A stretch of 64,000 nucleotides of DNA from Nostoc sp. DedVER02 (GCF_034530675.2 NZ_JAVRCP020000024.1:10690-74689); one strand, 5' to 3'. Numbered from the stretch's first letter, positions 7,714-61,562 are shown. The notes: generated by a model not told the origin, from the letters alone. Program-made: numbers and translations.

Positions 7714-7716
7714 TAG

Positions 7717-12305: not shown

Positions 12306-12361
12306 AACACCAGTTTAGTAGAAGTTGGGATTGGGGACTATGAGCTATTTCGACACAAAGA

Positions 12362-12464: not shown

Positions 12465-12474
12465 CACTATACCG

Positions 12475-14292: not shown

Positions 14293-14322
14293 TCATTTGT
14301 CATTTGTCATTTGTTATTTGGT
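14292..14322 (+). repeat. STRR heptamer array (TCATTTG)n
   Basis: gtcatttgtcatttgtcatttgttatttggt. Inverted relative to the array at 14765-14797. Confidence 0.9.
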
Positions 14323-36057: not shown

Positions 36058-36160
36058 TGATTTTAGAAAATCTGGACTAAATTAATCAAAATAGATTAGT
36101 TTAGTAAACTAGCAAAAAATTGCATATTGATGGAGAGTTTCACATGGTTAAGAAAGGATA

Positions 36161-37483: not shown

Positions 37484-37534
37484 TTGTTATCTTTAACCTT
37501 TGTCTCCCAATGAAATTAGCCAAATTAATCAAAA

Positions 37535-38461: not shown

Positions 38462-38480
38462 TAACTAATCTAGGAAATTC

Positions 38481-41019: not shown

Positions 41020-41043
41020 CTTAGTAAATCAATACTTCATAAT

Positions 41044-42060: not shown

Positions 42061-42114
42061 ACGTAATCAAAATAGCTGCATTGATATTTTCCAAATAAAT
42101 TACATAAGGTAAAT

Positions 42115-43011
42115 ATGATGAAAAAAGCAAATATAGCTGTAGTTATGACCTGTCATAACAGGCGTAATATAACTCTCGCTTGTTTACACACTTTATATGA
42201 GCAAAAAACTAATTGTGATGTCTACCTAACTGATGATGGTAGTTCGGATGGAACTGCACAAGCCGTCAAAGCAGAATATCCAGAGGTACATATTCTTCAG
42301 GGTAATGGCAACTTATTTTGGGTGGGAGGGATGCATCTCGCCTTTGGTGAGGCGATAAAAAATCAATATGACTATTATCTGTGGTTGAATGATGACACAT
42401 TTCTAGAAGCTAATGCTATCAGTAAATTATTGCAGATTCATCAAAATTTATCTGAGCAAGGTTATCCAGACTCAATTGTAGTTGGTTCAACTAAAGATCC
42501 AATGACAGGAAAAGCAACTTATGGAGGTGCAGTAAAATCTAAAAAATGGTACTCCAACAAATTTGAGTTTTTAGAACCAAGTTCGATTATCCAACAATGT
42601 GATGCTATGTATGGTAACTGTGTGTTAATTCCTAAAACTGTTGCTGCAAAGGTTGGCAATATTGATACAGCTTTTATTCACAGTTTAGGAGATTTAGATT
42701 ACGCCCTCAGAGCGCGTAAATTAGGTTGTCAAATATGGGTAGCCCCTGGATATATTGGTACTTGTACTAAAAATTCCATTCGTAATAGTTGGGTAGATAC
42801 CAATTTAACTATATTGCAGCGCTTGAAAAAAGTACTGCAAATTAAAGGATTTCCATTAAAACCCTGGACTGTATTTTGTATGAGGCACTCTGGGCCATTA
42901 TGGATATTTTACTGGTTTTTACCCTACATTAGAGCAATTATTGGTTACAAAAACTTGGCAATTTCTCCTACATTCTCTGATGATATCAGCCAAACTAACT
43001 CGGAAATATAA
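42115..43011 (+). CDS. Family 2 glycosyltransferase
   Basis: VVMTCHNRRNITLACL, LTDDGSSDGT and WLNDD. Confidence 0.7.
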   Translation: MMKKANIAVVMTCHNRRNITLACLHTLYEQKTNCDVYLTDDGSSDGTAQAVKAEYPEVHILQGNGNLFWVGGMHLAFGEAIKNQYDYYLWLNDDTFLEANAISKLLQIHQNLSEQGYPDSIVVGSTKDPMTGKATYGGAVKSKKWYSNKFEFLEPSSIIQQCDAMYGNCVLIPKTVAAKVGNIDTAFIHSLGDLDYALRARKLGCQIWVAPGYIGTCTKNSIRNSWVDTNLTILQRLKKVLQIKGFPLKPWTVFCMRHSGPLWIFYWFLPYIRAIIGYKNLAISPTFSDDISQTNSEI

Positions 43012-43125
43012 TTTTGCTAATAGGATTTTTAACGAATAATATTTAGATAATTTATAACTATCTAAGCAAGTTAAAAAACTTTTAAAAAGTTCAATTTATT
43101 AAATGTTGAAATAATCAAACATGTT

Positions 43126-44277
43126 ATGGGAAAACGCTTACTAATTGTCTCAACTCTGGATTCAAGACAACCATTTGGTGCATTTACTAGACCTTTTTAT
43201 CTAGGACAATATCTTACTAAAGATTTTGATGTTTTTCAGATAGGATTAGATTGCTCATCTGTTAACTATGCTCCTTCTATTTCGGTTGGATCGAGAAGCC
43301 TAAAGTCATATATTCAAACTATAGAAAAGTGTGTCGATGAGTTTTGTCCAGATATCGTTTATGCTCAAGAAACTTTACCTGGATTAGCTGCTTTAATTTC
43401 ACTTAAGCTTAGGAAACATAAAAATTCCTTTCTTGTATTAGATTTTCATACATTTTCAGCGTATGAATACTGGATGCGTTTGTTTTCTGTTGCCAATCCT
43501 TTCAAAGAGTTTGTACAATGTATTAAGACATATATTGCTCAGGGAATTTTAATATTTTCTGGTAGTCCAATTATTGCAGCAGGTGACTCTATTCCCAAAC
43601 TAATTTCCCAGTGGTACGGTAAAACTCCACAGGAAATTTATAGTATTGGGAATGGAGTTACTGAAGACTTACTAAATACTGAATTGTTGTTGAGCAAAGA
43701 CCCATATCAAGCATTTAGACCAGCAAAGATTGTGGTTCTTATTGCTCCTAAAACATTTCAGTTTCCAAGTAATGATATGTCTGTATCAATGACTGTTGAG
43801 GTTGCAAAATACCTGGAAAGTCATCAGGAAAAAATACATTTTGTTGTTATAGGTAGGGATGGTAGCGATATTTCAGAACCAATACCTTCTAATATTTATT
43901 TTTTAGGGTTTTTACCAAAAAGAGAGGATTTTGTTGACCATGTTAAATATGCGGATATTGCTTTGCTACCATTCTCAAAACAAGCAGTAGCAGGTGGCGC
44001 TCGTAATAAAGCTTTGGATTATTTTGCTAGTAAAAAGTTAGTTGTATCAACACCAGAAGGCTTGCGAGGTTTAGAAGAGTTTCGACATTTGGAACATCTT
44101 CTAGTTACAGGATATTCTACTGAAGAAGTTGCTAATACAGTTTTGGATGCAGCCTCAAATTTTGATAAATATCAATCACTTGTAGATACAGCATATACTT
44201 TAATTACAGAAAAATATTCTTGGAATGCAAGAGCCCATAATATCGCCGAAATTCTGATGAAAGTAAGTCATTCGTAG
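43126..44277 (+). CDS. GT-B-fold (family 4-like) glycosyltransferase
   Basis: Size and the C-terminal half (LLPFSKQAVAGGARNKALDYFASKKLVVST) fit a divergent GT4. Confidence 0.55.
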   Translation: MGKRLLIVSTLDSRQPFGAFTRPFYLGQYLTKDFDVFQIGLDCSSVNYAPSISVGSRSLKSYIQTIEKCVDEFCPDIVYAQETLPGLAALISLKLRKHKNSFLVLDFHTFSAYEYWMRLFSVANPFKEFVQCIKTYIAQGILIFSGSPIIAAGDSIPKLISQWYGKTPQEIYSIGNGVTEDLLNTELLLSKDPYQAFRPAKIVVLIAPKTFQFPSNDMSVSMTVEVAKYLESHQEKIHFVVIGRDGSDISEPIPSNIYFLGFLPKREDFVDHVKYADIALLPFSKQAVAGGARNKALDYFASKKLVVSTPEGLRGLEEFRHLEHLLVTGYSTEEVANTVLDAASNFDKYQSLVDTAYTLITEKYSWNARAHNIAEILMKVSHS

Positions 44278-44411
44278 TTAAGTTTTTAAACTTAAGTTTT
44301 CTGAATATTTAAATTTTAAAATTATTTAAATATTGTTAGGAATTGATTTTTAAATAATCACTTTTGTTGTGACATTAACTCTCATAATTCTACAAATAAA
44401 AATCTTAAGTC

Positions 44412-45236
44412 ATGAAAAAACGATTTTCTTATAAACTTCTTGGTGTTAAAGTTGATGCACTCTCTATCCCAGAGCTAAATTCATTAATTGAAGAATCTGT
44501 TGAAAAACAACAGAAGTGGATTATTGCAAATCACAACTTGCATAGTCTTTACCTCTTTCATAATGACCCTGAAATGCAAGCTTTTTATGCCCAGGCTGAA
44601 TATATCCATATTGATGGCATGCCTTTATTGTTTATTGGAAAATTGTTAGGTTTTCCTCTAAAACGAGAACAAAGAGTAACCTATGCTGATTGGATATGGC
44701 CTCTGATGGCGGAAGCAGCTAATAAAGGCTGGCGTGTATTCTATTTAGGTTCAAAACCTGGAATTGCTGAACAAGGAGCAAGTATTTTGCGCGAGAAGTT
44801 TCCTGGTTTAGAGATTGCTTGCGCTCATGGCTACATTGATATGGATAAAGATAGTCAAGAAAATCTTGCTACTCTAGCTGCGATTAATGCTTACAAACCC
44901 CATGTATTAATGGTAGGAATGGGTATGCCACGCCAAGAGCATTGGATTTCTGAAAATCTAGAATATATTGATGCCAACACTATTTTGACTAGCGGAGCTT
45001 GTATGGACTATGTAGCAGGAGCAATACCCACTCCTCCTCGTTGGATGGGAAGGGTGGGTTTGGAGTGGTTGTATCGCTTGCTGTCTGAACCGAAAAGACT
45101 TTGGAGACGCTATTTACTTGAGCCTTGGTTTGTAGCCACTTTATTTTTACGGGAAATTTGGAGTATACCAAGTCAACAAAAAAAAAATAAAATGCTGTTA
45201 TTTCTCAGTACAAGATTTCACAAGTTTGTTGGGTGA
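44412..45236 (+). CDS. WecB/TagA/CpsF family (GT26) glycosyltransferase
   Basis: VDGMPLL-type region (IDGMPLLFIGK), MGMPRQEHWI and GACMDYVAG. Confidence 0.75.
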   Translation: MKKRFSYKLLGVKVDALSIPELNSLIEESVEKQQKWIIANHNLHSLYLFHNDPEMQAFYAQAEYIHIDGMPLLFIGKLLGFPLKREQRVTYADWIWPLMAEAANKGWRVFYLGSKPGIAEQGASILREKFPGLEIACAHGYIDMDKDSQENLATLAAINAYKPHVLMVGMGMPRQEHWISENLEYIDANTILTSGACMDYVAGAIPTPPRWMGRVGLEWLYRLLSEPKRLWRRYLLEPWFVATLFLREIWSIPSQQKKNKMLLFLSTRFHKFVG

Positions 45237-45331
45237 TTGAGTTTTGCAAAGCCTTCCCAGTAAGTAACTCAATTCGTCATGAATTTATGAAATACTGTAT
45301 TAAGGCTTGATCAGAAATTACTCAAAACTTC

Positions 45332-47614: not shown

Positions 47615-48214
47615 ATGAAATCTTTGCACCGTCCCGATCTCTATAGCTGGTCTAATTTCAATCCGGCAAGAAATATTGATTTCAATGGGATTGCCTGGAT
47701 TCGCCCAGATGGAAACATCTTGATTGATCCAGTAGCCCTATCAAACCATGATTGGAATCATTTGAAATCCCTCGGTGGTGTGGTTTGGATTGTGCTGACG
47801 AATTCTGAGCATGTCAGGGCAAGTAAAGAAATTGCCGATCAAACTTATGCTAAGATAGCTGGCCCTATGGCAGAAAAAGATACTTTTCCGATAGCTTGCG
47901 ATCGCTGGCTGTCTGATGGTGAAGAGTTCGTACCTGGGTTAAAAGTAATTGAACTCCAAGGCTCGAAAACTCCCGGTGAATTGGCTCTGTTACTGGAGGA
48001 GACAACTTTGATTACAGGGGATTTAGTCAGGGCACGCAAAGCCGGTAGTTTAACTATACTGCCGGATGACAAACTGCTGAATCGAGAGGAGGCTGTTGCT
48101 TCTGTTTGCAGATTGGCAGAACTGAGTCAAGTAGAAGCAGTGCTGGTAGGGGATGGTTGGCCGGTTTTTCGTGATGGACGCGATCGCTTAAAGGAACTTG
48201 TGGCGACGCTGTAA
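47615..48214 (+). CDS. MBL-fold protein with a degenerate HxHxDH motif
   Basis: Overall beta-lactamase-fold pattern, but the metal motif position reads LTNSEHV. Confidence 0.55.
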   Translation: MKSLHRPDLYSWSNFNPARNIDFNGIAWIRPDGNILIDPVALSNHDWNHLKSLGGVVWIVLTNSEHVRASKEIADQTYAKIAGPMAEKDTFPIACDRWLSDGEEFVPGLKVIELQGSKTPGELALLLEETTLITGDLVRARKAGSLTILPDDKLLNREEAVASVCRLAELSQVEAVLVGDGWPVFRDGRDRLKELVATL

Positions 48215-48255
48215 ATAGTTGGGGGCGATGCCTATGTTCAGGGCTAGCCCTACAC
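48180..48255 (+). repeat. Direct repeat A: native 3' end of the MBL gene plus a palindromic terminator
   Basis: gcgatcgcttaaaggaacttgtggcgacgctgtaaatagttggg...agggctagccct. Matches 55783-55856. Confidence 0.85.
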
Positions 48256-48262
48256 TCAATTT

Positions 48263-51200
48263 TTACTGACTGGTGATATCATCGCAGAGGTAGCGATCGT
48301 TTTTCATATTAGGGTTATTTTTCAGATAACCAGATGCCAACTTACAGGCACGCTTGAGTAAATCATCTAAATTATCATTAAGATATATTTTTCCCTCATT
48401 GCTATTAAGCTCAATTGTCTTATTGGTATTAAGGTTAAATCGATCGCCTAAGAAAGAACTGATGGGATAGAGTAAGTAAGGATCTTTCGTAAACCAACTA
48501 TTCAGAAAATATAGACCTGTATTAGAATCAGAACCAACAGCCAGCATTCTGTTGTAATTATCAAAACTTAAGGTATAACTACTATAATCAGTCTTTAATG
48601 GTTCAACTTTTCCATTATCTAAATTCCACAATTTAGCCGAAGATCCACTAACAAAGGCAATCTTTTTATCATCAGCTTGGAAGCGTATATTTGTAATTTT
48701 ATCAGGATCAGAAATGGTTGGTTTTTGTAATTTACCATCAAGATTCCAGAGTCTTATAATTTTGTCATCACTAGCGGAAGCAATAATTTTTCCATCATGA
48801 GTGAAACTCACGCTATTGACTTTATCACTCTGTTTTATAATCGGTTTAAGCAATTTACCATTTCTATTCCAAAACCTTACTGTTTTGTCGTCACTAGCAG
48901 AAGCGATGATTTTTTTATTAGGGCTGAATACAACACTATTAACCCAATCAGTATGACCCGATAAGGTTGCTAGCGGCTTGCCTTTTAAATTCCAGAGTTT
49001 TAAACTATCATCTTTACTAACGAAAGCAACTGTTTTTTTATTAAAATTAAACCTAATCAAAGAATCTATATTATTACATAAAACATTGACATGACCTTTA
49101 ATAGATTTTAACTCTTGAAAATTGGCATTATCTTCAATACTCCAAAACTTCATAATATACTTAGAACGATAAATATCATTCGACAAATAAGTTTTGCAGC
49201 TAGTAGCACCAATGATTTTTCCATCAGCACTAAAGCTAACCTTATCAATGCTAATATCATCATTTGGTTTATTACCAAATCCTGAAAGTGGTTTGATAAA
49301 ATTACCGTTGCTGTTATAGATATTCACAGTGTTATCAGCACTGGCAGAAGCAATGTATTTGTTATCAGAACTAAACGCAACATCATTAACACCTTTAATG
49401 TGCTTTTGTAAAGTCAGAGGTTCATAGTTGGATTTTTTAAGCAAAAGCTGGTTTATATCCCAAATCTTTATAGTATTATCAGCACTGCTAGTTACAATTT
49501 TTGTACCATCAGGGCTAAAATCTACTTTCGTGATTGTGTCATTATGTCCTTTGAGTGTTGGGCGTGGTTCTCCCTCAACAGTCCATAGGTTGACAGTATA
49601 ATTCTTGTTAATAGAAGTAATGTACTTGCCATTAGGACTAAATTTAGCGCTGATCATGATATAGTTCTCAAGAGATTGAGGTGGTTGGCTATTGCTGATA
49701 TCCCAAATTTTTATCTCACCACTATTAGCGCTAACTGACATGATCTTTTTGTCATTTGGACTAAACTCTACGCTTTGTACCTTGGAATTATGCCCAATCA
49801 ATGGCTTAAGGGGAGTACCATCACTTTTATAGAGTTTGACTAAATTGTCATCGCCGAGAGCAAGCATCTTGCTATCATGACTAAATATAACACTTGTGAC
49901 TTTATCACTATCTACTTTTAAGGCTTGAATTAAACTGCGATCGCGGCTATTCCAAAGTTGCACTTTATTGTCATGACTGATAGTAGCTATTATCTGACTA
50001 TTAGGGCTAAAGCTCACATTGGTAACTTGTTTTGTGTCTCCCTTTAAATGTCCTATAAATTTTCCGTCACTACTGCGCCAGAGTCTAACAAAATTATCTG
50101 CACTGGCACCAGCAACCAAATTACCATCAGGGCTAAAGTCAATGGTTGTGATCTTATTGGTGCTACCTTTTAAAGTAATTTCCTTGTTGGTATCTAGTTT
50201 CCAGAGCTTTAAGATATCGTCAGAGCTTCCAGTTGCAAGGGTTTGATTATCTGGACTAAAGCTAAGAATTGAACTATCTCCTGGGATAGTTTTGATGTGA
50301 GTGCCATTACGGTTTTGAAGTTCTATACTATTGTCAGAACTACCAAGAGGGACTGTTTGACCATCAAAACTAAACTCTATTTTCCTATTTGTATCTTCAT
50401 ATCTATCGGTTCTCTGGAATGAGGATAATTTATTGTTCTCAATATCCCAAATTTTCACAACTCCATCTTTACTAGCTGATGCAAGTAGCTTGTTATCAGG
50501 ACTAAAGCTTGTATAAGTAATACTATCATCATGTTTAAAATTATTGTAAATAGAACATTGAGCTTGAAACATTCTAGTTCTGTATAAACTTTTCTTATCT
50601 TCACTCTCCTGGAATATGACCGATTGGTTATCAAAACTATTATTTATAAAATCTCCCAATCCAAATGAATTCTTACAACCATTCTCAACACTTTTGATGA
50701 GGTGTGGTTTATCACCAGTAGACCAAACTCTTAGATTTCCCTGTTTATTAAACAAGCTAATAGCGTCACCATTGTTATTGAAATTCATGGTAAATGTGCC
50801 AGAATCATAAATCTCAATAGGCTTATTTTCAATTTTTTTTGGTGTAAGTTTCCAAAGTTTAACAGTGTCATACCGTCCCCCTGTAGCAACTGTCTTGTTG
50901 TCAGGACTAAAACTTACAATTATGTTTTTGTCATTAAATCTTTGTGGTAAATTTAAGAGTTTACCATCTTGCCAACTCCAAATTTTAACTGTTTTATTCT
51001 TAGTGGTAGTGGCTAGTAGTTTATCGTTAGGGCTAAATGTAATAAAGCCTAGACCATCTTTATCAATTTTCAAAATTTTTATTGGTTTAAATTCAGCAGT
51101 ACTCCAGTTTTTACCTTCAGGAATATTCCAGATTTTTGCATTACCATCTTGGCTGACGGTAGCTAACATTTTTCCATCCGAGTTGAAGCTAATAGATGTT

Positions 51201-54200
51201 ACACTTTTTTTGTGAGCTGACCAGCTTCTTTCTTGACCATCAGAAATATTCAATATTTTGACTTTGCCATCTTCACTTGCCGTAGCTAACATTTTGCTAT
51301 CTTGGCTAAAACTAAGGACTGTAATTGCTTTATTATCGTACCCTTCTACACGGTTGATTTCTTTAATTTTCTGAATTGCATTACCCAGATTTGAAATAAC
51401 CTTTAGCCGAGTTTCAGGTATCACCCCTATTGATAAAAACTTCAGTTTTTTACCTACTTTAATAGCTGATACTAGCTCTTCAAGCCCTATGTCATCTTTT
51501 GAAGAAATATCTGATGTCAGGGAAGTGTTGATGTAAGCTGCTGTAACTCCTACTGCGATTACACTTATTGCACTTATTAATCCTATTAATGTAACAGTTT
51601 GTTTGCGTGCAGTTCTTAGCTGTTGTGTCAAAACCTGATTGAGTTTGGCTTCGGTGAGTTTTCGTTGTTCTTTTTCTTTCTCCAATTCAGCAATTAATCG
51701 GGCTGATTGTTGTTCACGAACAAATGGTACTAGATAGTCATGAACCAATTGATATCTGTCAGCCGGAAATCCTGGCACTTGAAATACTAAGCCTGATTTC
51801 ACTAGGATTTTCAAAATTAAATCTAATCTTGCAGGCTCTAATGCTAAATCTGCTTCTAATTCAGCACGATTTTTCAGAGGACGAGTATTATTTTCATCAG
51901 TTAACAAATACAAAACTAGCTTGGCGAACTGTTCGTTATTGTTACCACAATCTTTAACTACTTCTTCTAAGAAGCGCCCTACCAATTTTTCTTTAGGGCC
52001 TTGTTCTTGGTACTGAATCAAAGTTGTAATTTTCTCAGTTTGCAGTTGCGCTCCTACAACTTGTAATTCAATGGGGCGAATTTCGTTGAAATCTCTAGCT
52101 AAATCTCGTACTAGCTCATCAATTAGCGGTGGCTCTAGGTAAAACTGAGAACTTTCAGTTAAGCTTTGAATTACAGAGCGAGCATCTTCCGGCGAAAAGT
52201 TCCCTAAGTAATAAAGAATTTTTTTATCTAATATGTTGTTATCAATTGCATCCAAATGGGTTAAGCGATTACACTCTAGTAAATAATGGAGATAATCTTC
52301 TCTAAGAGACAGAATAATTTTTACATAAGGAATATTAAGACAATCTCGGATAAATTCAAAAAACGGTCTCCTTTTATCTTGGTCTTTATAAGCAAAAAAG
52401 AACTCTTCAAACTGGTCAAAAATCAGAACAGTTAACAAACCTTTCTCTATATTTTTATTCAACTCTTCTACAAAACCTGCCATTGAGTCTAAAAACAGAG
52501 GAAAGCTTAAGCCTCTAACTTCTTCTAGTGATTCTACTAAGCGACTTCCTAAAAGTTTTGTCCAATCTGTATAAACTTGCAAAAGAACAGGCACAACATC
52601 ACGAGCATCTATGGCTCTTTGTTTTAAAGCTGGTAATAATCCTGCCTGAACCAGGGAACTTTTACCTACTCCTGATTGACCATAAATGACCGTCAATTTG
52701 TGGTCATCACGACTGATTCTTTCAATCAATCGATTCACATCTTGCATTCTTCCAGAAGCAGCAATCTCTTGGGTTACTGCTGCTTTTGGATCGGCCACTG
52801 CAAGTCCAGGATTAATAACTTGGAGTTTAGATTGTAAGCGTCCTGCACCTACAAAAGCTCGTAATCCATACTGTTGCTCAATTGAACGTTGCTCTAGTTT
52901 AACTTGGAATGCTTCTAAATAATTACCTTGGTCAAAGTAGAGCGATCGCAGTTTCGCCAAAATGCGAATATATAGCAGTGGATCGTGTTGAGGATTACTT
53001 TCAGAATGAGCGGTTTCTAAATTAGCGATCGCCTCTGGAACCTGATTAATATTTTGTTGAGCTTCTGCTAATAAAAGTAAGTATAAATTTTTATAAAATT
53101 TGTGTTCCCACTCACAATTAATTATTTCTTCTGAGGAAATATTGGCATTCGTTTGTAATGCTAGTTCTGCATATTCTTTAGCCTCTTCCCATTGAGATTT
53201 TTTCAGCAATACCTCAGCCATGAATCCATAACTGTAGGCAAGTCTGATTGGTTCAGGGTAAGTTTGGTGTAGCTCAATAGCTACTAACGCAACTTTTTCT
53301 AACTCATCGTACGCTTCTAATCTGGTTAAAACTTCACCCCAAGCGTTAATAAATTTTGCTGCTAAATCTGGGTATTTTTGCTGCCTAAAACCCTCAACAC
53401 ATTTTTGAAAGTAATCTTTAGCTTTTAGGCAAGCTTCGTAATATTCAGAACGATGCAAAATCGCATACTGTTCCCACCAAAAACCAAGATGCCAAAGTAA
53501 ACATCCGTAACGTTTCAAATCATCAGATGATAGATTTTGGTTATTTTTGACTTTCTTTTCCCAAACAGCTATACTTTGATCATAATAATTTTTCGCTTCA
53601 GATTTATGTCCATTAGCATCTGCTTCCCGACCTAGCAAAAATTGTAAGCTTGCCTCTAGTTCAGGCTCTAATTTTTCTATAGATATTTGTAAATCTCTAA
53701 CAGCAGAATCAATTTCCCCTAAATGGAGAATACCAAGGTCAAGATTTAAGTAAGCATTATCCACAAACTTTCCAGCACCGACATTAATAATTGCTGCAAA
53801 TAGGGAATTAACAATTTGGTGCAGATTGTTGATTAACTGATTCGTAGCAATTTTAAACTTAATTGAGTTACCTGTCCAACTCTTAAAGTCAGGCATTAAT
53901 TGAATCAATTTTTGGAAGGTTTGATCATTTACCCAAATAACTATGGGAAACTGGAAATTCTTACGAAACTCCTCTCTTACCTGATTTGTAGAAATTAAAA
54001 GTTGGTCAATTGCATCTACTAATTCCAAATCAAATATCATCAAAGCTTGAGGTAGTTGATTTCCCAGGTTAGCTTCAATTGTTGTATAAAGTGTTTTGAT
54101 AGATTTTGACAGATGTAGCTCTCGAATCTCAACTTGACATTCTTGCTTGATCTGCTGCACCATCTGGTCTCGCAAACTGCAATAGTTACAACGTGCCAAA

Positions 54201-54304
54201 ATTAACGCAAAGTGTCCCTGAGAATTCGTAATTGAGCGGATTAGTTTTTTCAGGGAGCGTTCATTGTAGACAGCTACATCTTCAGGTTGATAAGAGTCAC
54301 TCAT
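48263..54304 (-). CDS. Giant STAND-type NTPase (2013 aa): degenerate NTPase-like N-domain, TPR-like repeats, active P-loop NTPase, winged-helix-like region, TM helix, ~1000-aa WD40 array
   Basis: Walker A YGQSGVGKSSLVQAGLLP (nt ~52655-52681), Walker B-like LTVLIFDQFEEFF. TM helix TVTLIGLISAISVIAVGVTAAYI (nt 51533-51598). Many SFSPD(G/N)K...(L/I)W WD40 units. The C-terminal LDDLLKRACKLASGYLKNNP tail is typical of cyanobacterial NTPase-WD40 proteins. Confidence 0.8.
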   Translation of the reverse strand: MSDSYQPEDVAVYNERSLKKLIRSITNSQGHFALILARCNYCSLRDQMVQQIKQECQVEIRELHLSKSIKTLYTTIEANLGNQLPQALMIFDLELVDAIDQLLISTNQVREEFRKNFQFPIVIWVNDQTFQKLIQLMPDFKSWTGNSIKFKIATNQLINNLHQIVNSLFAAIINVGAGKFVDNAYLNLDLGILHLGEIDSAVRDLQISIEKLEPELEASLQFLLGREADANGHKSEAKNYYDQSIAVWEKKVKNNQNLSSDDLKRYGCLLWHLGFWWEQYAILHRSEYYEACLKAKDYFQKCVEGFRQQKYPDLAAKFINAWGEVLTRLEAYDELEKVALVAIELHQTYPEPIRLAYSYGFMAEVLLKKSQWEEAKEYAELALQTNANISSEEIINCEWEHKFYKNLYLLLLAEAQQNINQVPEAIANLETAHSESNPQHDPLLYIRILAKLRSLYFDQGNYLEAFQVKLEQRSIEQQYGLRAFVGAGRLQSKLQVINPGLAVADPKAAVTQEIAASGRMQDVNRLIERISRDDHKLTVIYGQSGVGKSSLVQAGLLPALKQRAIDARDVVPVLLQVYTDWTKLLGSRLVESLEEVRGLSFPLFLDSMAGFVEELNKNIEKGLLTVLIFDQFEEFFFAYKDQDKRRPFFEFIRDCLNIPYVKIILSLREDYLHYLLECNRLTHLDAIDNNILDKKILYYLGNFSPEDARSVIQSLTESSQFYLEPPLIDELVRDLARDFNEIRPIELQVVGAQLQTEKITTLIQYQEQGPKEKLVGRFLEEVVKDCGNNNEQFAKLVLYLLTDENNTRPLKNRAELEADLALEPARLDLILKILVKSGLVFQVPGFPADRYQLVHDYLVPFVREQQSARLIAELEKEKEQRKLTEAKLNQVLTQQLRTARKQTVTLIGLISAISVIAVGVTAAYINTSLTSDISSKDDIGLEELVSAIKVGKKLKFLSIGVIPETRLKVISNLGNAIQKIKEINRVEGYDNKAITVLSFSQDSKMLATASEDGKVKILNISDGQERSWSAHKKSVTSISFNSDGKMLATVSQDGNAKIWNIPEGKNWSTAEFKPIKILKIDKDGLGFITFSPNDKLLATTTKNKTVKIWSWQDGKLLNLPQRFNDKNIIVSFSPDNKTVATGGRYDTVKLWKLTPKKIENKPIEIYDSGTFTMNFNNNGDAISLFNKQGNLRVWSTGDKPHLIKSVENGCKNSFGLGDFINNSFDNQSVIFQESEDKKSLYRTRMFQAQCSIYNNFKHDDSITYTSFSPDNKLLASASKDGVVKIWDIENNKLSSFQRTDRYEDTNRKIEFSFDGQTVPLGSSDNSIELQNRNGTHIKTIPGDSSILSFSPDNQTLATGSSDDILKLWKLDTNKEITLKGSTNKITTIDFSPDGNLVAGASADNFVRLWRSSDGKFIGHLKGDTKQVTNVSFSPNSQIIATISHDNKVQLWNSRDRSLIQALKVDSDKVTSVIFSHDSKMLALGDDNLVKLYKSDGTPLKPLIGHNSKVQSVEFSPNDKKIMSVSANSGEIKIWDISNSQPPQSLENYIMISAKFSPNGKYITSINKNYTVNLWTVEGEPRPTLKGHNDTITKVDFSPDGTKIVTSSADNTIKIWDINQLLLKKSNYEPLTLQKHIKGVNDVAFSSDNKYIASASADNTVNIYNSNGNFIKPLSGFGNKPNDDISIDKVSFSADGKIIGATSCKTYLSNDIYRSKYIMKFWSIEDNANFQELKSIKGHVNVLCNNIDSLIRFNFNKKTVAFVSKDDSLKLWNLKGKPLATLSGHTDWVNSVVFSPNKKIIASASDDKTVRFWNRNGKLLKPIIKQSDKVNSVSFTHDGKIIASASDDKIIRLWNLDGKLQKPTISDPDKITNIRFQADDKKIAFVSGSSAKLWNLDNGKVEPLKTDYSSYTLSFDNYNRMLAVGSDSNTGLYFLNSWFTKDPYLLYPISSFLGDRFNLNTNKTIELNSNEGKIYLNDNLDDLLKRACKLASGYLKNNPNMKNDRYLCDDITSQ

Positions 54305-55605
54305 AGTTTAAATTTCTTCGATTCTGCGATCGCTGGGTTAATATCAAACCAGCGTCCATCAACATCCCGGTATTCAAATAAAAACATACTTCGTAAAAGA
54401 GTTTGGTATTCGTCCTCTCCTTTGACATTATCCCTCTGTTGCAAAACCTGTAGCAGTAGCGCCCACTCGCTATCACTAATTGCTGATACCAAATCATCCC
54501 GATACTCGCGGATGACCATTTCCAGACAGTTCCGCCCAATAGGGGGATCACCTTCTTGCAAGCAACTGTAAAGTAAAACTAACAGATTTCGCACATGTCC
54601 ACCACTAACTCGGCAAAGACGATCTAAGGTTTCATCTGAATCAAAAACTTCATTAATATGACTCAAACGTTGCGTTTCTCCTAGCCAGGGAAACGCCCGT
54701 GCTAAAACCATTTGTTGTAGTAGCTTCATACCTTCTAGGTTGTAGGTTCCCTCACGATTCTTGACTGTCACCATTGGTAATACTACAGGTTTGATCCCGA
54801 AACGATTAGTAAGAGTGCTTAATTCATTGGAGAAAATTAACACTAGAGGAATGGTATAAACCAAATGACAATTGAGTTTTTTTAACTGCTCACCCCGATC
54901 AATGAATAGATATTCTGGTTGAGAACGACCAGAGGCTTTAGGAGAGATATCGACGCGATCAAGATTATCAATAATTACCACTAATCCTTGATAACCTTGT
55001 AGCTTCAATTGCTCTTTAGCACGCTCTAGTACCTGTTGATTAATAGCTTCTAATATGCCACTAGTCCGAGGTTCTAGGTATTGGCGCAACTGGCTCCGCA
55101 GCCTGGGACTATCTTTAGTCTTGGCAGTGACTTTACCAATTCCCAAAGGTAATGAAAATTCAAATTCTGGAACTACTGGTGTTTGTAAAAAATCCGCAAT
55201 TTCATTAAACAAATCGACAAAATAGCTTGGTCTAAGTTTGATTTTAACCTTTTCTAAACTGGCGCTAACTTGACGAGTTATTGCTAACAAAATATCGCTG
55301 ACATCCACATCTGCCATATCTAAATCAGCACTGGACTCAAAGTAGACTACATGAAAGCCTTGCTTTTCTAATTCATCTTTGAGTCGAAATAGTTCTGTAG
55401 ATTTACCACAGCCAATATGTCCAGTGAATAATTGGCAGGTTGACTCATCTGGTTGATTAGCAATCGTCCGCCGTAAACGTTGAATTACATTGCCTCCACG
55501 CACTGGCGAGAAGTCAATATAGTACTGTTGGTCTTCTTTATTCTCAATTTTTAAAGTCTTACTGGGATTACAGGCATTAAAAAACTTAATAGGGTCTAAA
55601 GCCAT
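54301..55605 (-). CDS. P-loop ATPase (STAND/AAA-like), translationally coupled to the giant NTPase-WD40 gene
   Basis: Walker A TGHIGCGKSTELFRL, Walker B-like LVVIIDNLDRVD, helical C-terminal half. Its stop overlaps the downstream start (ATGA at 54301-54304). Confidence 0.65.
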   Translation of the reverse strand: MALDPIKFFNACNPSKTLKIENKEDQQYYIDFSPVRGGNVIQRLRRTIANQPDESTCQLFTGHIGCGKSTELFRLKDELEKQGFHVVYFESSADLDMADVDVSDILLAITRQVSASLEKVKIKLRPSYFVDLFNEIADFLQTPVVPEFEFSLPLGIGKVTAKTKDSPRLRSQLRQYLEPRTSGILEAINQQVLERAKEQLKLQGYQGLVVIIDNLDRVDISPKASGRSQPEYLFIDRGEQLKKLNCHLVYTIPLVLIFSNELSTLTNRFGIKPVVLPMVTVKNREGTYNLEGMKLLQQMVLARAFPWLGETQRLSHINEVFDSDETLDRLCRVSGGHVRNLLVLLYSCLQEGDPPIGRNCLEMVIREYRDDLVSAISDSEWALLLQVLQQRDNVKGEDEYQTLLRSMFLFEYRDVDGRWFDINPAIAESKKFKL

Positions 55606-55782
55606 TACGGTTTCCTCTTACTACTTAAAAAATAAAAGTATAAAATATTACTTAATGGTATTAACTAGAGTTTCAGTATATACTAATACATGCAGATAAA
55701 AAATCTTTGTAAAGTAGAATCTCACTTAACTTAAGCAAAAGTTGCTACTAAAAAGATAGTTGTCCTATCTTTAGCAATACAG

Positions 55783-55856
55783 GCGATCGCTTAAAGGAAC
55801 TTGTAGCAACGCTTTAAATGGTTGGGTAGTACAGCTAGCTGTGCTACCCTACAGGA
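55783..55856 (+). repeat. Direct repeat B: orphan copy of the MBL-gene 3' end plus a palindromic terminator
   Basis: gcgatcgcttaaaggaacttgtagcaacgctttaaatggttggg...ggtagtacagctagctgtgctacc. Still encodes GDRLKELVATL-stop. Confidence 0.85.
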
Positions 55857-56012
55857 AATTGCGGTTCAGATAAATGAAAAAGGCTGTAATAAAAATTGTA
55901 ATGTGAATATTACAAACTGGTGCAATTTAAAACAGCTAATAACAGCGCCTGAATTTGACTCTGTTTAATTAATTATCAGCAGCAAAGCGCGATTCTCCTG
56001 TGGAAAGGCTGC

Positions 56013-57254
56013 GTGATCGCGTGCAGAATATTGACAGTGTTGCCTAAAATTATGGATAATTCCCCAGTGGTCGCTCAAGCAGATGCATCCTTACCAAATT
56101 ACACTCAGGAAAATATACATCTAGTGGAGTCAAACAAAAAGATCGGAACTGATTTTGACTCTCGCATGATGCTGCGGTGTTTGGAACTTGCTCGCCGCGC
56201 TTTAGGACGGACTTCGCCAAATCCGTTAGTGGGAGCGGTGATTGTCAAGGATGGCGAAATTGTCGGCGAAGGGTTTCATCCTCGTGCAGGTGAGCCTCAT
56301 GCAGAAGTGTTTGCTTTAAAAGCAGCAGGCGATCGTTCTCGTGGTGCAACAATCTATGTGTCACTTGAACCTTGTAATCACTACGGGCGAACTCCCCCTT
56401 GTTCAGAAGGATTGATCCAAGCTGGAGTAGCAAAAGTGGTAGTGGGTATGGTTGATCCCAATCCACTGGTAGCTGGAGGTGGTATTGCTCGTTTACGGGC
56501 GGCGGGGATCGAAGTGTTGGTAGGAGTAGAAGAATCAGCTTGTCGTCAGCTAAATGAAGCTTTTGTGCATCGCATTCTCTACAAGCGACCTTTAGGAATT
56601 TTAAAATATGCCATGACTTTAGACGGCAAAATTGCTACTACCTCTGGTCATAGCGCCTGGGTGACAAGCCAAGAGGCCCGCAGTGAAGTACATCAACTGC
56701 GGGCGGGTTGCGATGCAATAATTGTCGGGGGTAATACAGTGCGACAAGATAATCCTTATTTAACTAGTCATCATCTGGAGGCACATAATCCCCTGCGGGT
56801 GGTGATGAGTCGCAATCTCAACTTACCGGAAAGTGCCCATCTGTGGCAAACTGCGGATGCTCCTACTTTGGTGTTGACACAGAAGGGTGCTAACCCCGAT
56901 TTTCAAGGACTGTTGCGAAAACTTGGGGTGGAAGTCGTGGAATTAACATCACTTACACCAGATCAGGCAATGGTGTATTTGTATGAGCAGGGTTTTTGTA
57001 GCGTGTTGTGGGAATGTGGCGGTACTTTAGCTGCTAGTGCGATCGCTCAAGGAGCAGTGCAAAAAGTTTTGGCATTTATTGCCCCAAAAATCATTGGTGG
57101 TAGCATTGCTCCCACACCTGTGGGCGATTTAGGTTTTACTACCATGACTGAGGCATTGTCTCTAGAACAGGTTCGTTGGCGTGTAGTTGGTTCTGACTGC
57201 TTAGTGGAAGGTTATTTCCCGAAAAAGCCAATAGTCAATAGTAATAACACTTGA
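56013..57254 (+). CDS. ribD: Bifunctional riboflavin biosynthesis protein RibD (deaminase/reductase)
   Basis: Deaminase zinc motifs HAEV and PCNHYGRTPPC, and a reductase domain (KYAMTLDGKIAT). ATG 56052 is a likelier start than GTG 56013. Confidence 0.85.
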   Translation: MIACRILTVLPKIMDNSPVVAQADASLPNYTQENIHLVESNKKIGTDFDSRMMLRCLELARRALGRTSPNPLVGAVIVKDGEIVGEGFHPRAGEPHAEVFALKAAGDRSRGATIYVSLEPCNHYGRTPPCSEGLIQAGVAKVVVGMVDPNPLVAGGGIARLRAAGIEVLVGVEESACRQLNEAFVHRILYKRPLGILKYAMTLDGKIATTSGHSAWVTSQEARSEVHQLRAGCDAIIVGGNTVRQDNPYLTSHHLEAHNPLRVVMSRNLNLPESAHLWQTADAPTLVLTQKGANPDFQGLLRKLGVEVVELTSLTPDQAMVYLYEQGFCSVLWECGGTLAASAIAQGAVQKVLAFIAPKIIGGSIAPTPVGDLGFTTMTEALSLEQVRWRVVGSDCLVEGYFPKKPIVNSNNT

Positions 57255-58054: not shown

Positions 58055-58831
58055 CTAATTCCTTATATCCCACATATCTTGGTAAATTGGATGGATTTCA
58101 CGCACTAATTTCCATAAACGACGTCTTGCTCGGTAGGCATACCAAACTAAAATGACTAAAGTCTGCCAACTCATCAATATACAAATATTTTGAGTTCCTA
58201 GTGCAATAGCGATAACTAGAAACCCAAATAAAAAGACACGAAGCATTTCATGGGGTAGTCCTTCTAACCACTTACTTTTAGTATAACGATAAACAAAATA
58301 GGGTATCCAGACACTAACCACTTGTGCTACAAACAACATTGACCCAATAATATTGGTTTTTGTCACTACAAGAAAACCAAATGACTTGTAAGTTTGCAAT
58401 ACAAAGTAAAGCCAAGTTCTTGTCTGCTTATCAATATAGTTGTAAACAAAGAAACTTAGGCGTACAACCAGGAGTAAACCTATCCATAATGCCATTTTAA
58501 CTAAAGCTGTTTTTAAATCTAGGGTGCTAACAATGGAAGCCAAAGTAACATCACTTGAGACAACTTTAGCCAATTCCAAAATAATTAGCCCAGGGACAGC
58601 AAAAATTACAGCCCAAATCCAAGCCTGCCATACATTGATTCGGTTCTTGTACTGTTGGTAAGTTGCTGATAGGACTGGTTTTTTCTCAAACCGTTCAGCA
58701 ACTATGTCATTTTCTACATAGCCTAGTTCATAGATGCACCAGAAAGAAAGTAATACAAAAAACATACCAGTGGCATGAATAAGAGGGAGCATCCACTTTT
58801 GGCAGAAACACTCAAATAGCAAGTAAACCAT
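58055..58831 (-). CDS. Multi-pass membrane protein, N-terminally truncated by the IS (the first ~16 codons are IS-derived)
   Basis: About 7 hydrophobic segments. Codons for MVYLLFECFCQKWMLP lie inside the IS left end and its inverted repeat. Native sequence begins near 58784. Confidence 0.4.
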   Translation of the reverse strand: MVYLLFECFCQKWMLPLIHATGMFFVLLSFWCIYELGYVENDIVAERFEKKPVLSATYQQYKNRINVWQAWIWAVIFAVPGLIILELAKVVSSDVTLASIVSTLDLKTALVKMALWIGLLLVVRLSFFVYNYIDKQTRTWLYFVLQTYKSFGFLVVTKTNIIGSMLFVAQVVSVWIPYFVYRYTKSKWLEGLPHEMLRVFLFGFLVIAIALGTQNICILMSWQTLVILVWYAYRARRRLWKLVREIHPIYQDMWDIRN

Positions 58832-59967
58832 TCAGATAAGCACAACGAACAGAAAGGATTTGGTTGACACTCCCAACATTCCACTGTGCGCCAGAAATTT
58901 TCATCCTAGCTCCAATCTGTTTAATAGCAGACTCGACTGCACCAGAACCAATAGAACAAAGTTGTTCAGCTTGGTAATAAGTATAGTTGACAATACGGGA
59001 GCAATGTTTTTCGAGATAAGCGATGAAGTTCTTAGCTTGTTTGCCTCGGCAATTATGAAATAAAGCCTTGGCTTCTTCAACTTGACCCTGCCATAAAAGA
59101 GTTTCAGCTGCTTTGAGTCGCTTTAAAGAACCACCCACTTTGTAAAGATTTTCCTTGAGATGATACCAATCTAAAATTTCCCAACGCTCAAAATTCTCAC
59201 TTTTACCAAACTCTTTGACGAGATTCCATACACCATCATGACCATCTCCTAAGCAGACTAACGGGTTAACTAGACGCTGGCTATTGATATAATCAATTAA
59301 TGATTGGTTGTCATCAAAAAACGCACCATAGTAAATCCCTTGCAGACGAACGGTTTTATAGTCTCGCCAGTGACAGCCTGCTTTCGGTTTACCCCTAAGT
59401 CGGACTTTTCCTCCATCTACGCTAACTTCTGAAACTGATTGTTTAGCAAGTGGTAGTTGAAAATCTTGTGACATGACTAGTTGTTGTTGTGTTGAGTGAC
59501 CAACTTTTACTCCTGTCAATGCCTCAATCTCGATTTCTGCTTTTTGGTAGGATTCGTTAGCTGATAACCTCAAACAGCACTTTTGAAGTAATGGACAAAA
59601 GCTTCCTTCTTGGCTTTAAACCTAGTCTAATAAGCTGTTTGGCTTTTAATTTCAGTTCCCCTACTAGGCTTTTTATTTTCCTGGTTTTACCTACTTTTGT
59701 TCCAGTTTTTTGTTCGATAAAAAAAGGGCTATTTCTGGGCTGACTAATTCTAATACTTGACTGCGAACTGTTTTTTCTATGCCTTCGAGGTCTGCCAGCT
59801 TACTTTTATCTGCTTCTTCATACAGCAGTGTTGACAATTCTTGTAAGCAGGCTTTGATCCGTTCTTGTTTCTCTTGGTTCATTGTCAGCGATCGCACAGG
59901 GTTCTTTCCCTTTACATTTTCCCATAAATGGTAAATCTTCCAAAACTGGATGCTCCCCATGTGTTCA
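58785..59967 (-). mobile_element. ISKra4-family insertion sequence (~1.18 kb) with terminal inverted repeats
   Basis: IRs are gggagcatccacttttgg (58785-58802) and ccaaaactggatgctcccc (59949-59967), matching at 17 of the 18 aligned positions. Internal transposase motifs include LSANESYQKAEIEIEALTG, GGKVRLRG, LGDGHDGVWN and ILDWYHLKENL. Confidence 0.7.
58812..59882 (-). pseudogene. ISKra4-family transposase, reading frame broken at least twice
   Basis: Three frame segments: 59691-59882 (MNQEKQERIKA...), ~59578-59690 (VGKTRKIKSLVGELKLKAKQ...) and 58812-59573. Confidence 0.6.
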
Positions 59968-60901
59968 ACTTCAAAACAGATCAGGAAAAGCGAAACAAGA
60001 CATCATATTAGAGAAATGCTATAGAAATTCTCGCCCACTCCTAACTTCTGCACATGCTTTGGGTTTTGGAATATATAGAAATGAAGGATTAATCCAAATG
60101 TTTGATGATGCAGGATTATGGAGAGATATTGGTTACGAAGTAGAAGAAGGAAACTTAGATGAAGGAAAGCCTGTAAAGCTTAGTAGAACTAGCGATACTA
60201 GTCCAATATTCCTTGAATCTCACTCAACTATTGATGACTTAATTATATTTAAGTCATTTAATAATAGCCACGAACAAAATGAATGGTTAGTCAATGAAAT
60301 AGAGAAGAACATTAGAGAAGATGAATTAAAGTATGATGACATAATGATTATTCATTCTAACCCGTTTACAACTAAAGATGCCGTTGGAAGCTCTAGGGCT
60401 TTACTCTTTGAAAGAAAGATTAATTCTAACCTAGCTGGAGTAACGAATTCCCGTGATGAATTTTTTAGTGAAGAAGCAGTCACTTTCACGGGTATCTATA
60501 GAGCAAAGGGAAATGAAGCTGCGATGATATATGTTATAAATGCCCATTAATGCTTTTCTGGTACAGAGCTTTCTCAAAAAAGAAATATCTTGTTTACTGC
60601 CATGACAAGAAGTAAAGCTTGGTTAAGAGTATTAGGCTATGGTGAAAATATGAGGGGTTTGGTGAAAGAATTTGAAGAAGTTAGAAAAAGAAACTTTGTT
60701 CTTGAATTTACCTATCCTACAGAAAAAGAACGAATAAGAATGAATGTTATCAATAGAGATATGAGTCCTAAAGAGCGTGAGCGTAGAAGTCAGAACCAAA
60801 GAAATTTAAAAGATATTGTTGAAGATTTAGACAATGGTGTTATACACAAAGAAGATTTGCCACAAGAACTAATAGAAAAATTGAAAAATTACCTACTTTG
60901 A
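59968..60901 (+). pseudogene. SF1 (UvrD/AAA_30-like) helicase, C-terminal half only, with an in-frame TAA at 60548-60550
   Basis: CYRNSRP (motif IV-like), VTFTGIYRAKGNEAAMIYVINA, then after the stop, in the same frame, NILFTAMTRSKAWLRVLG (motif VI-like). The N-terminal ATPase half is missing at the IS boundary. Confidence 0.6.
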
Positions 60902-60902
60902 A

Positions 60903-61562
60903 ATGACTAGTCATCAAGAAATTTATAAAGAAATTAATACCATAACTCAAAAACTAATAGAAGTTAGTTTGTGTGACCAACAAAATTTTCCGTCATCTAC
61001 ATCTATTGGTAAAGATAGTTATGAGATTGCATATTCTGGTATGCAGGATCTCTCAATAGCACTGAAAAATATTGATTACAAGGACATATATCATGAACTA
61101 AACAGAGGTAAAAACTACAACTTCAAAATGATTGATGGTGCGTTAATACAACTTTTGTATACTTATAAAAAGTCCGAGCTAATTTCACATAGGCTTGCTT
61201 TTTTACCATCACCATTTTTAGAAGTTTTCCAGAATGAGCCTACAATTTATGAAGAAGACGAAATATATGCAGATATAATAGCAAAAAATATATTACCAGT
61301 ACCAATTAGGTTCGATTATGATCCAGACAATCATAAAGAATTAGATCACCCCAAATGCCATCTAACCTTGGGACAATTTAAAAATTGTAGAATACCTGTT
61401 TGTTCCCCAATCGCACCGAGTACTTTCATATCCTTTATTATTCGTAGTTTTTACAATACTGCTTTTAGAAAATTTACAGATGATCTTACTTTTTCAAGCA
61501 ACCTTTTCGACAAAACGATAGCTGATGCAGAGAAGAAAGTATTGCACATAGCTATTTATTAA
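60903..61562 (+). CDS. Hypothetical protein, DUF2290-like helicase partner (assignment from memory)
   Basis: 219 aa, starting 1 nt after the helicase stop. HPKCHLTLGQFKNCRIPV resembles the conserved core I recall for DUF2290. Confidence 0.35.
   Translation: MTSHQEIYKEINTITQKLIEVSLCDQQNFPSSTSIGKDSYEIAYSGMQDLSIALKNIDYKDIYHELNRGKNYNFKMIDGALIQLLYTYKKSELISHRLAFLPSPFLEVFQNEPTIYEEDEIYADIIAKNILPVPIRFDYDPDNHKELDHPKCHLTLGQFKNCRIPVCSPIAPSTFISFIIRSFYNTAFRKFTDDLTFSSNLFDKTIADAEKKVLHIAIY

Follow-up and report, generated by a model that had tools for sequence, protein, structure and literature searches.

We analysed a 64,000-nucleotide (nt) stretch of DNA from Nostoc sp. DedVER02 (NZ_JAVRCP020000024.1:10690-74689), referred to here as the window, and in particular a two-gene cassette that lies between a gene for a metallo-beta-lactamase (MBL)-fold protein and ribD. 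The cassette encodes a small P-loop ATPase and a giant protein in which an NTPase of the STAND class (signal transduction ATPases with numerous domains) is combined with tetratricopeptide repeats (TPR), a membrane helix and WD40 arrays (Table 1). Both proteins are identical to existing database entries (WP_322641313 and WP_322641312, Nostoc sp. DedVER02-type).

The interval between MBL and ribD contains just two open reading frames (ORFs) of at least 120 amino acids (aa), both on the minus strand, and their junction is a 4-nt ATGA overlap (...AAA CTA TGA / ATG AGT GAC), which confirmed the description of two co-directional, translationally coupled genes in an initial annotation made from the sequence alone. 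The block had also been described as AT-richer than its flanks, and its guanine-cytosine (GC) content was indeed 0.36, compared with 0.46 for MBL, 0.47 for ribD and 0.45 for an aminotransferase gene beside MBL (window mean, 0.38); such a difference from the flanks (0.45-0.47) is in keeping with a genomic island. The MBL-fold protein is 93-99% identical over 80 Nostoc-group genomes. The two copies of the MBL gene tail that bracket the block (48152-48223 and 55755-55826) share 79% identity over 72 nt, with a core of 44 nt at ~90% identity that contains the MBL stop codon, and a blastn search of the repeat against the whole window gave an E value of 1.3e-12 for this match and 0.34 for the runner-up. 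A diverged hairpin 3' of each copy extends the similarity to ~105 nt, and on the left the fainter similarity reaches ~48257 as a hairpin remnant. Scans of the locus with Rfam and for tRNAs, promoters and terminators yielded nothing exceeding chance; the weak -35/-10 match in the leader (55664-55637) was at chance level, and the negative tRNA scan excluded an integration site of the tRNA type.

Table 1. Features of the cassette and its flanks (window coordinates; residue ranges refer to the giant protein). AF2, AlphaFold2; pLDDT, predicted local distance difference test; KD, Kyte-Doolittle.
Feature	Coordinates	Strand	Residues	Evidence
Left flank: MBL-fold gene (Lactamase_B_5)	47615..48214	+		Pfam E 3e-117
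Direct repeat, left copy: working MBL 3' end, stop codon and ~10 nt	48152..48223	+		blastn E 1.3e-12
Giant gene, 2013 aa: N-domain, TPR, nSTAND1, membrane helix, WD40 arrays, Cys cap	48263..54304	-		
C-terminal cap with two conserved Cys	48266..48427	-		C-termini of 80 family proteins
WD40 arrays, ~three propellers, predicted extracytoplasmic	48515..51373	-	978-1930	Pfam WD40/beta-propeller models
Single membrane helix, after coiled coil and basic residues	51524..51595	-	904-927	KD score 2.32
nSTAND1 NTPase module	51728..52753	-	518-859	PF20703 E 1e-33
TPR superhelix	52871..53731	-	192-478	Pfam TPR_12; Foldseek E 1e-7
N-terminal alpha/beta domain, family-specific, candidate docking or effector domain	53780..54286	-	7-175	AF2 pLDDT ~90
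Small ATPase gene, 434 aa	54301..55605	-		
AT-rich leader, presumed promoter region of the cassette	55606..55754	-		Sequence
Direct repeat, right copy: non-coding MBL pseudo-tail and palindrome 55821-55852	55755..55857	+		
Right flank: ribD	56013..57254	+		TIGR00326 E 5e-125

Architecture and predicted topology of the two proteins

The NTPase module of the giant protein scored 113-118 bits against nSTAND1 (PF20703), for which the Pfam gathering cut-off is 27.1, and is thus a member of this family. Its Walker A (GQSGVGKSS) and Walker B (LIFDQFEE) motifs and the arginine of SLRED are intact and near-invariant in 46 homologues, and its winged helix terminates in YQLVHDYL. The TPR superhelix, with motifs over aa ~200-470 and with LGN and kinesin light chain as its best Foldseek matches, follows a disordered linker (aa 179-193) that connects it to the N-terminal domain (N-domain). 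In the WD40 region, 20 segments were detected, including the two halves of one split blade, and the blades are mutually 60-80% alike at the DNA level. A cap motif, LDxLLxRGCxWxxDYLxxNxxxxxxDRxLC, recurs across the family (80 C-termini compared); in the form LDxLLxRGCxWxxDYLxxNPxxxxxDRxLC, this two-Cys motif, which is without a Pfam model, was present both in copies linked to ftsQ (see below) and in dispersed copies. On plasmid4 of Calothrix sp. NIES-4101 (L173:10363-16508), the partner of the ATPase is annotated as two ORFs of 697 aa and 1300 aa, the latter labelled 'WD-40 repeat-containing protein', which represent either a split version or a frameshift, and several database entries of ~900 aa stop at or just past the membrane helix. 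Domain searches thus agree with the initial annotation, in which the pair had been read as a small P-loop ATPase together with a giant of STAND, TPR, transmembrane and WD40 parts.

The AF2 model of the N-domain shows a five-fold beta-alpha repeat of ~170 aa with no P-loop. The domain had no Pfam match even at E values up to 1 and no match in a profile search of PDB sequences with an alignment of the domain as query, and the only Pfam match of aa 1-250 was to TPR. A fold search with the model of the N-domain plus TPR gave TPR proteins only, the TPR part having dominated. The possibility that the domain is a degenerate copy of either NTPase found no support at the sequence level, hhalign comparisons with the small ATPase and with nSTAND1 having been negative. 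Homologues of the domain form 954 representative clusters, and its position was N-terminal in nearly all of the 150 matches listed. N40, R110 and D139 are invariant, and C39, N107 and D127 are near-invariant.

No nuclease, protease, TIR or SIR2 domain was found with Pfam, NCBIfam, PADLOC, a PDB sequence search or a fold search, and scanning of the giant protein as four separate segments (Pfam, NCBIfam, PADLOC) also revealed no effector domain. The statement in the initial annotation that neither protein has a recognisable effector therefore holds after profile and structure searches. PADLOC matches below threshold were HEAT-ARM_XIII on the WD40 part and mad3 (E 1e-3). Given that the N-terminal domain of STAND proteins is usually the effector, the N-domain, with its invariant polar residues and five-fold beta-alpha repeat, might itself be an unrecognised enzyme (TIR-like or flavodoxin-like), in which case the part of the small ATPase would be that of a chaperone or threshold switch, like MoxR in the vWA-MoxR systems, and not that of the output. 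We regard such an effector within the giant protein as rather unlikely, the Pfam, PDB profile and hhalign searches with the N-domain speaking against it.

In the AF2 model of the small ATPase (pLDDT 84.5), an AAA+ core is followed by a helical lid and, at the C-terminus, a winged helix; the motifs of the protein are GHIGCGKST, IIDNLDR and, in the lid, SGGHVRNLL, which we take to resemble the sensor-2 motif of ORC/Cdc6. The best Foldseek matches were archaeal and eukaryotic Orc1/Cdc6 proteins (2qby_A, 1fnn_A, ORC subunits; best E 4e-7), with further matches to TnsC, CED-4/Apaf-1 and RdrA (range, E 4e-7 to 1e-4), and for ORC1/Cdc6, TnsC and CED-4/Apaf-1 the values were E 4e-7 to 1e-5 with template modelling (TM) scores of 0.40-0.46. 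On the basis of the modelled core, lid and winged helix, the protein can be described as ORC/Cdc6-like by fold. It shares these three elements with ORC1/Cdc6, TnsC and the nucleotide-binding and oligomerization domain (NOD) modules of CED-4/Apaf-1, but has a conserved N-terminal extension of 40 residues that is unique in this comparison, and its Walker B motif reads DNLDR instead of DE. A profile of the protein matched no chain significantly among PDB sequences (best E 0.16, RFC), and Pfam returned weak, generic AAA/STAND matches. Assignment to the KAP NTPases was rejected, the KAP_NTPase score being 19.8 bits against a cut-off of 20 and neither the AF2 model nor the sequence containing a hydrophobic insert. 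A scan of viral contigs with the ATPase revealed no relatives and no sign of phage carriage.

At a KD score of at least 1.8, the membrane helix was detected in 63 proteins of a family set of 80; in a set of 118, it was detected in 85 at a threshold of 1.6 and in 101 at 1.4. In the 101 proteins whose helix occupies this position, net charge was +2.9 in the 15 residues before the helix and +0.5 in the 15 residues after it, with the former exceeding the latter in 79 proteins. Cys content was 1.10% before and 0.40% after the helix, and the number of Cys residues after it was even in 70 of the 101. Across these 101 family proteins, the statistics are those expected of a membrane receptor with an outer sensor: a single hydrophobic helix, a positive-inside bias, and a predicted outer part that is Cys-poor with paired Cys. 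From the charge bias, the Cys statistics and the conserved two-Cys cap, we infer an N-in, C-out receptor whose WD40 stack would lie where conditions are oxidising, in the periplasm or in the thylakoid lumen.

The insertion site and the wider family

The site was surveyed with one genome per species and the MBL protein as query, which yielded 80 Nostoc-group loci, 40 of them with both MBL and ribD. Among these 40 genomes, the site was empty (ribD start within ~420 nt of the MBL stop) in 21, contained the cassette in three (L004, L015, L043), and held other cargo in 16, most commonly an NDH-2 and DoxX pair and elsewhere a GNAT-like gene or a radical-SAM cluster. This presence/absence polymorphism at a conserved site defines an accessory cassette. 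Elsewhere on the chromosome, the pair has three settings that are unrelated to one another (in Nostoc cf. commune SO-36, a further Nostoc and Tolypothrix carrinoi), where the ATPase is 85-91% identical and the genes always overlap by 4 nt; no third gene was conserved beside the pair across at least six contexts. More distant relatives are present on plasmids of Acaryochloris (pREB2), Nostoc UHCC 0302 and Calothrix NIES-4101, with toxin-antitoxin genes, integrases, a NACHT gene and a DNA methyltransferase among their neighbours. On pREB2 the pair is situated between HicAB and RelE/ParE cassettes, with integrases and the NACHT gene nearby. The initial annotation had called the block an island, a status that occurrence of the same two genes in all related genomes, with no empty sites, would have contradicted; the 21 empty sites among 40, the other contexts and the distant plasmid relatives uphold it.

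In one locus outside the 40 (L029, no ribD within the 10-kb flank), a VMAP-MoxR-vWA ternary conflict system follows MBL directly. Given this system and the varied cargos, the MBL-ribD site is a hotspot at which cargo varies and can include conflict systems. The genes of the ternary system (L029:11301-18411, Nostoc sp. P12559 bin 8) encode an EAD1-trypsin protein, an EAD1-VMAP-M1/VMAP-C protein, a MoxR-type AAA+ protein whose N-terminal motif is W/PxWR, and a protein of 1047 aa with OAA-lectin and FGE-sulfatase at its end, after which NDH-2 follows. Four Nostoc genomes (L048, L053, L069, L070) hold a different paralogue pair within ~9 kb (~2-9 kb) downstream of MBL, with ribD not adjacent; its ATPase is 63-67% identical and falls in a separate clade of the tree, and its position suggests that the MBL region attracts such cassettes repeatedly.

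Although the duplication of the MBL tail noted in the initial annotation is real, it is not a specific mark of this insertion: second copies of the tail also terminate other cargos, such as NDH-2/DoxX. The spacer of the empty site in L016 aligns to the window right of 55826, indicating that the right repeat copy is continuous with the ancestral MBL-ribD spacer. Synonymous divergence (dS) between carriers was 0.06-0.42 for the conserved parts of the cassette and 0.07-0.29 for MBL and ribD. We therefore rejected the repeat as the cassette's own attL/attR, given that other cargos share it and that the cassette is of the same age as its flanks. The cassette contains no integrase, recombinase or transposase ORF and so does not qualify as an integrative mobile element. 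Because it is as diverged as the flanking genes, it is an old presence/absence polymorphism in a recombination hotspot rather than a recent insertion. The cassette also occupies the MBL-ribD interval of Nostoc punctiforme PCC 73102, ~7-15 kb from dnaA (roughly nt 7,200-14,550 of CP001037), where the ATPase is 99.3% identical to that of the window and the giant protein is ACC78809; in that genome (L178, CP001037 nt 1-23253) the aminotransferase gene beside MBL is shorter, being called at 314 aa as against 404 aa in the window.

Two other low-GC regions of the window were noted. Just beyond ribD (59882-61562, and 58055-59573) lies a truncated candidate defence pair, consisting of a fragment of the PADLOC 'Helicase' (PDLC03002, E 1e-105) that covers model positions 386-588 of 707, together with a DUF2290 gene that is intact (PDLC02999, E 9e-110). 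Two minus-strand ORFs beside them show a weak likeness to UPF0236 (E 2e-3) and may be the remnant of a disrupting transposase. Upstream of the flank genes, positions 36000-45300 (GC 0.32-0.35) contain a polysaccharide cluster with a Wzy_C O-antigen ligase-like gene, GT4 (also matching a 'GT4-conflict' model, E 9e-10), GT2 and WecG.

The small ATPase belongs to a family with >3500 matches in cyanobacteria and 62-68% identity across orders, and the giant protein belongs to a family of ~950 clusters at 50% identity. We examined a neighbourhood sample of 80 metagenomic loci (L088-L167) obtained by an ATPase profile search. A gene for an N-domain/TPR/nSTAND1 protein directly followed the ATPase gene in 68 of the 73 loci with downstream room, and ftsQ and ftsZ were located immediately upstream, in divergent orientation, in 45 of the 59 loci with upstream room. 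This block, with ftsZ and ftsQ on one strand and the ATPase and giant genes on the other, was found in Tolypothrix bouteillei, Kamptonema sp. UHCC 0994 and an Oscillatoriales metagenome-assembled genome, and the linkage therefore spans both Nostocales and Oscillatoriales. In one Oscillatoriaceae genome (L086/L087), the ATPase gene stands alone beside ftsQ without a STAND partner. In a neighbour-joining tree, the ftsQ-linked genes formed one large clade, with the window clade and other dispersed copies outside it. Linked and dispersed copies coexist within single assemblies, namely L143 with L088 (JAESGF), L111 with L142 (JAESGP) and L149 with L112, and translational coupling is kept in the window pair and all its close relatives.

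This distribution bears on the main rival explanation, according to which the pair serves housekeeping or developmental signalling: it would monitor the envelope, septum or peptidoglycan for division control, and the window copy would be redundant, with a drifting ectodomain. The ftsQ-ftsZ linkage across two orders, the identity of the ATPase between orders, an ORC/Cdc6-like fold with a winged helix that would suit a cell-cycle role, and WD40 dN/dS values (ratios of nonsynonymous to synonymous divergence) below 1 are all in its favour. The window clade, however, is never ftsQ-linked and coexists with linked copies in the same assemblies; the cassette is absent from most Nostoc, and its distant plasmid relatives lie beside toxin-antitoxin genes and integrases. 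Simple decay of a redundant copy is also at odds with the intact frames and conserved WD fold residues of all eight orthologues described below. For the window pair we consider a housekeeping role unlikely, if plausible. Profile searches did not place the two proteins in a characterised housekeeping pathway, an outcome that the initial annotation had named as contrary to its interpretation.

Ectodomain divergence and candidate functions

We compared eight giant orthologues of the window clade. They are 72-98% identical up to the membrane helix, after which identity collapses: the values for the cytoplasmic and outer parts, respectively, were 97/64, 96/57, 94/54, 89/62 and 72/30%. The corresponding values for ftsQ-linked orthologues were 96/94, 94/94, 83/79 and 72/78%. 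The family thus has a conserved member, probably a core one, whose outer ligand surface is also conserved, whereas in the dispersed paralogues, the window copy included, the outer surface appears to be diversifying. The dN/dS values were ~0.02-0.05 for the ATPase, 0.04-0.07 for nSTAND1 and 0.38-0.55 for WD40. The dS of the WD40 region was also raised, up to 0.86, which points to a mosaic of older allelic lineages brought in by recombination. Positions that determine the WD40 fold (F8, S9, A16, S19, D21 and W27) are conserved, and the loops and inter-blade linkers vary (mean variability 0.63 against 0.44). Given that the fold-determining positions are kept while the loops vary, the propellers are being maintained and are not decaying. 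All eight orthologues have intact frames of 1976-2066 aa.

The low GC content, the patchy distribution and the lack of a recognisable output would be compatible with a remnant, decaying or selfish, that has no function today. We regard it as highly improbable in view of the eight intact frames, the conserved translational coupling and the strong purifying selection on the ATPase and STAND parts.

The hypervariable, predicted extracytoplasmic ectodomain and its old allelic lineages would also suit a sensor of partners or neighbours, whose polymorphic periplasmic WD40 surface would read ligands that are extracellular or in a shared periplasm, in the manner of HET-E/NWD proteins. Such a sensor would serve kin recognition or allorecognition, within one filament or between several, or the detection of plant or fungal hosts by symbiotic Nostoc. 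The record names indicate that carriers include lichen- and plant-associated Nostoc, and judging by the names among the matches, the family is almost confined to filamentous cyanobacteria. The pair, however, has no linked ligand, secretion partner or second polymorphic gene, the blades do not show the repeat homogenisation of fungal NWD proteins, and nothing separates such a sensor from one of phage. We therefore consider a partner sensor quite improbable.

The small ATPase is the most conserved component of the pair (mean pairwise distance of 0.28 versus 0.42-0.52 for the domains of the giant protein), and in a mirror-tree comparison its divergence tracks that of the N-domain (r = 0.92) and TPR (r = 0.95) more closely than that of STAND (r = 0.86). 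For these two reasons we favour it as the output, or as an obligate co-switch.

On the evidence of its architecture and distribution, the block may be an accessory, laterally dispersed paralogue of a two-gene module specific to cyanobacteria and provide a membrane receptor of the conflict type whose signal passes through the small ATPase, a reading for which we put the chance at about even. The giant protein would be a single-pass receptor resembling nucleotide-binding leucine-rich repeat receptors (NLRs), with the N-domain, TPR and nSTAND1 in the cytoplasm and a WD40 stack of ~1000 residues in the periplasm or thylakoid lumen. A ligand outside the cytoplasm, strain-variable and so probably non-self (derived from phage, a competitor or a host), would bind the WD40 face, and the membrane helix and coiled coil would carry the signal inward. 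The nSTAND1 module would then exchange nucleotide and oligomerise, and the clustered N-domain/TPR platform would recruit or activate the small ATPase, which would be the output. The winged helix might allow the ATPase to act on DNA or another conserved cellular target and bring about growth or cell-cycle arrest, not enzymatic destruction.

Five circumstantial lines of evidence suggest a conflict role for the window clade: its presence/absence polymorphism, the hotspot in common with the VMAP system, the toxin-antitoxin and integrase genes that adjoin the plasmid relatives, diversification of the sensor, and the truncated helicase/DUF2290 candidate just beyond ribD. Under a more specific proposal, an NLR-like receptor would sense outside the cytoplasm with a periplasmic, allelically diversified WD40 stack, and its output would be an ORC/Cdc6-like AAA+ protein instead of a toxin domain. 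Having arisen by duplication of the ftsQ-ftsZ module, it would couple immunity or the recognition of non-self in multicellular cyanobacteria to control of division or the cell cycle; we rate this as conceivable but on balance unlikely.

Several observations weigh against a conflict-type receptor. Most of the family is ftsQ-ftsZ-linked with a conserved ectodomain, which suggests that it originated in housekeeping and possibly still has such a function. PADLOC v2 yielded no significant match for either protein, and literature searches found no paper on the window pair or the ftsQ-linked pair. The WD40 dN/dS is below 1 overall, and at that value relaxed constraint with recombination is not separable from positive selection. 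The cassette has diverged together with its flanks and so has not been recently mobile at the MBL-ribD site. Export of a WD40 stack of ~1000 residues is a statistical prediction. The mirror-tree signal is confounded, the ATPase gene physically adjoining the region that encodes the N-domain and TPR, and we give the correlation little weight because of this linkage. The defence interpretation offered in the initial annotation accordingly captures half of the picture: a conflict role for the window pair is compatible with its accessory status and variable sensor, but most homologous pairs belong to the conserved ftsQ-ftsZ block.

Relation to known systems

The initial annotation had likened the pair to Avs-type defence proteins, but PADLOC did not support its placement there or in another catalogued system. 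Gao et al. reportedly set out the features of the Avs (antiviral STAND) proteins in 2022. The window giant shares with Avs, bNACHT and Apaf-1-like STANDs the order of an N-terminal module, an NTPase and a C-terminal repeat sensor, as well as diversification of the sensor. The window pair differs from Avs and bNACHT in having no Avs match and no known effector, in forming a two-gene unit, and in a sensor that is predicted to be periplasmic instead of cytoplasmic; an Avs assignment was rejected, no Avs model having matched and no N-terminal effector being recognisable. WD40 sensors have been reported for cyanobacterial Apaf-1-like STANDs (PMC13581612). The VMAP (vWA-MoxR) ternary system was likewise rejected, the two-gene block having no MoxR, vWA or VMAP genes and L029 serving as positive control. 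By the sequence features tested, the giant protein is best classed as an nSTAND1 member and not as Avs, bNACHT, VMAP or KAP.

Zorya and Kiwa are membrane-anchored phage sensors with cytoplasmic, DNA-directed outputs. Their likeness to the window pair would be one of concept, namely envelope sensing coupled to a cytoplasmic effector that is not necessarily a classical toxin; there is no homology, and their PADLOC models gave no match. The fungal HNWD and HET-E incompatibility receptors of the NACHT-WD40 type are cytoplasmic and have a HET effector and homogenised repeats. Fungal NACHT-WD40 receptors are treated further in bioRxiv 10.1101/2025.09.29.679196. The window pair resembles HNWD and HET-E in its hypervariable WD40 region, set against a conserved NTPase, and in its presence/absence polymorphism, but its blades are 60-80% alike (DNA), it has no HET effector and its WD40 region is predicted to lie outside the cytoplasm.

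The closest described relatives are the nSTAND1-type STAND conflict systems of multicellular bacteria (Kaur, Burroughs, Iyer, Aravind 2020/2021; PMC7159879, PMC8195603). The window giant has in common with them a central nSTAND1 module (PF20703), superstructure-forming repeat arrays and enrichment in filamentous cyanobacteria, and it occupies a variable genomic site that in L029 holds a VMAP ternary system. It differs in being without an EAD, Death-like, caspase, trypsin or TIR module, in having TPR on the N-terminal side of the NTPase, and in a helix predicted to place WD40 outside. An obligate ORC/Cdc6-like ATPase partner is not described in the sections of PMC7159879 and PMC8195603 consulted here. 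The two-gene, membrane-associated EACC1 system (System 4 of Kaur 2020), as outlined there, is similar in that a conserved 5' 'constant component' precedes a large variable 3' gene and in its membrane association and occurrence in multicellular bacteria. In that outline EACC1 is a small membrane-helix domain with a caspase-containing partner, whereas the window pair consists of a soluble AAA+ ATPase and a STAND receptor, and the two are not homologous.

In bacteria, plants and animals alike, STAND/NLR receptors are regarded as sensors that act in the cytoplasm and are joined to an effector of recognisable type. The present family departs on both counts, given that its variable sensor is predicted to face the periplasm and that its candidate outputs are only a novel alpha/beta domain and an ORC/Cdc6-like ATPase. 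The periplasm of filamentous cyanobacteria is thought to be common to the whole filament. The presence of the cassette at this site in N. punctiforme PCC 73102, a model strain open to genetic manipulation, makes these predictions directly testable, and the conserved copy adjacent to ftsQ-ftsZ provides a natural comparison with the plasmid and hotspot copies, whose ectodomains are hypervariable. A predicted periplasmic sensor, an N-terminal TPR, a family-specific N-domain, an ORC/Cdc6-like partner and an ftsQ-ftsZ-linked relative are the features in which the window pair differs from the known kinds of system.

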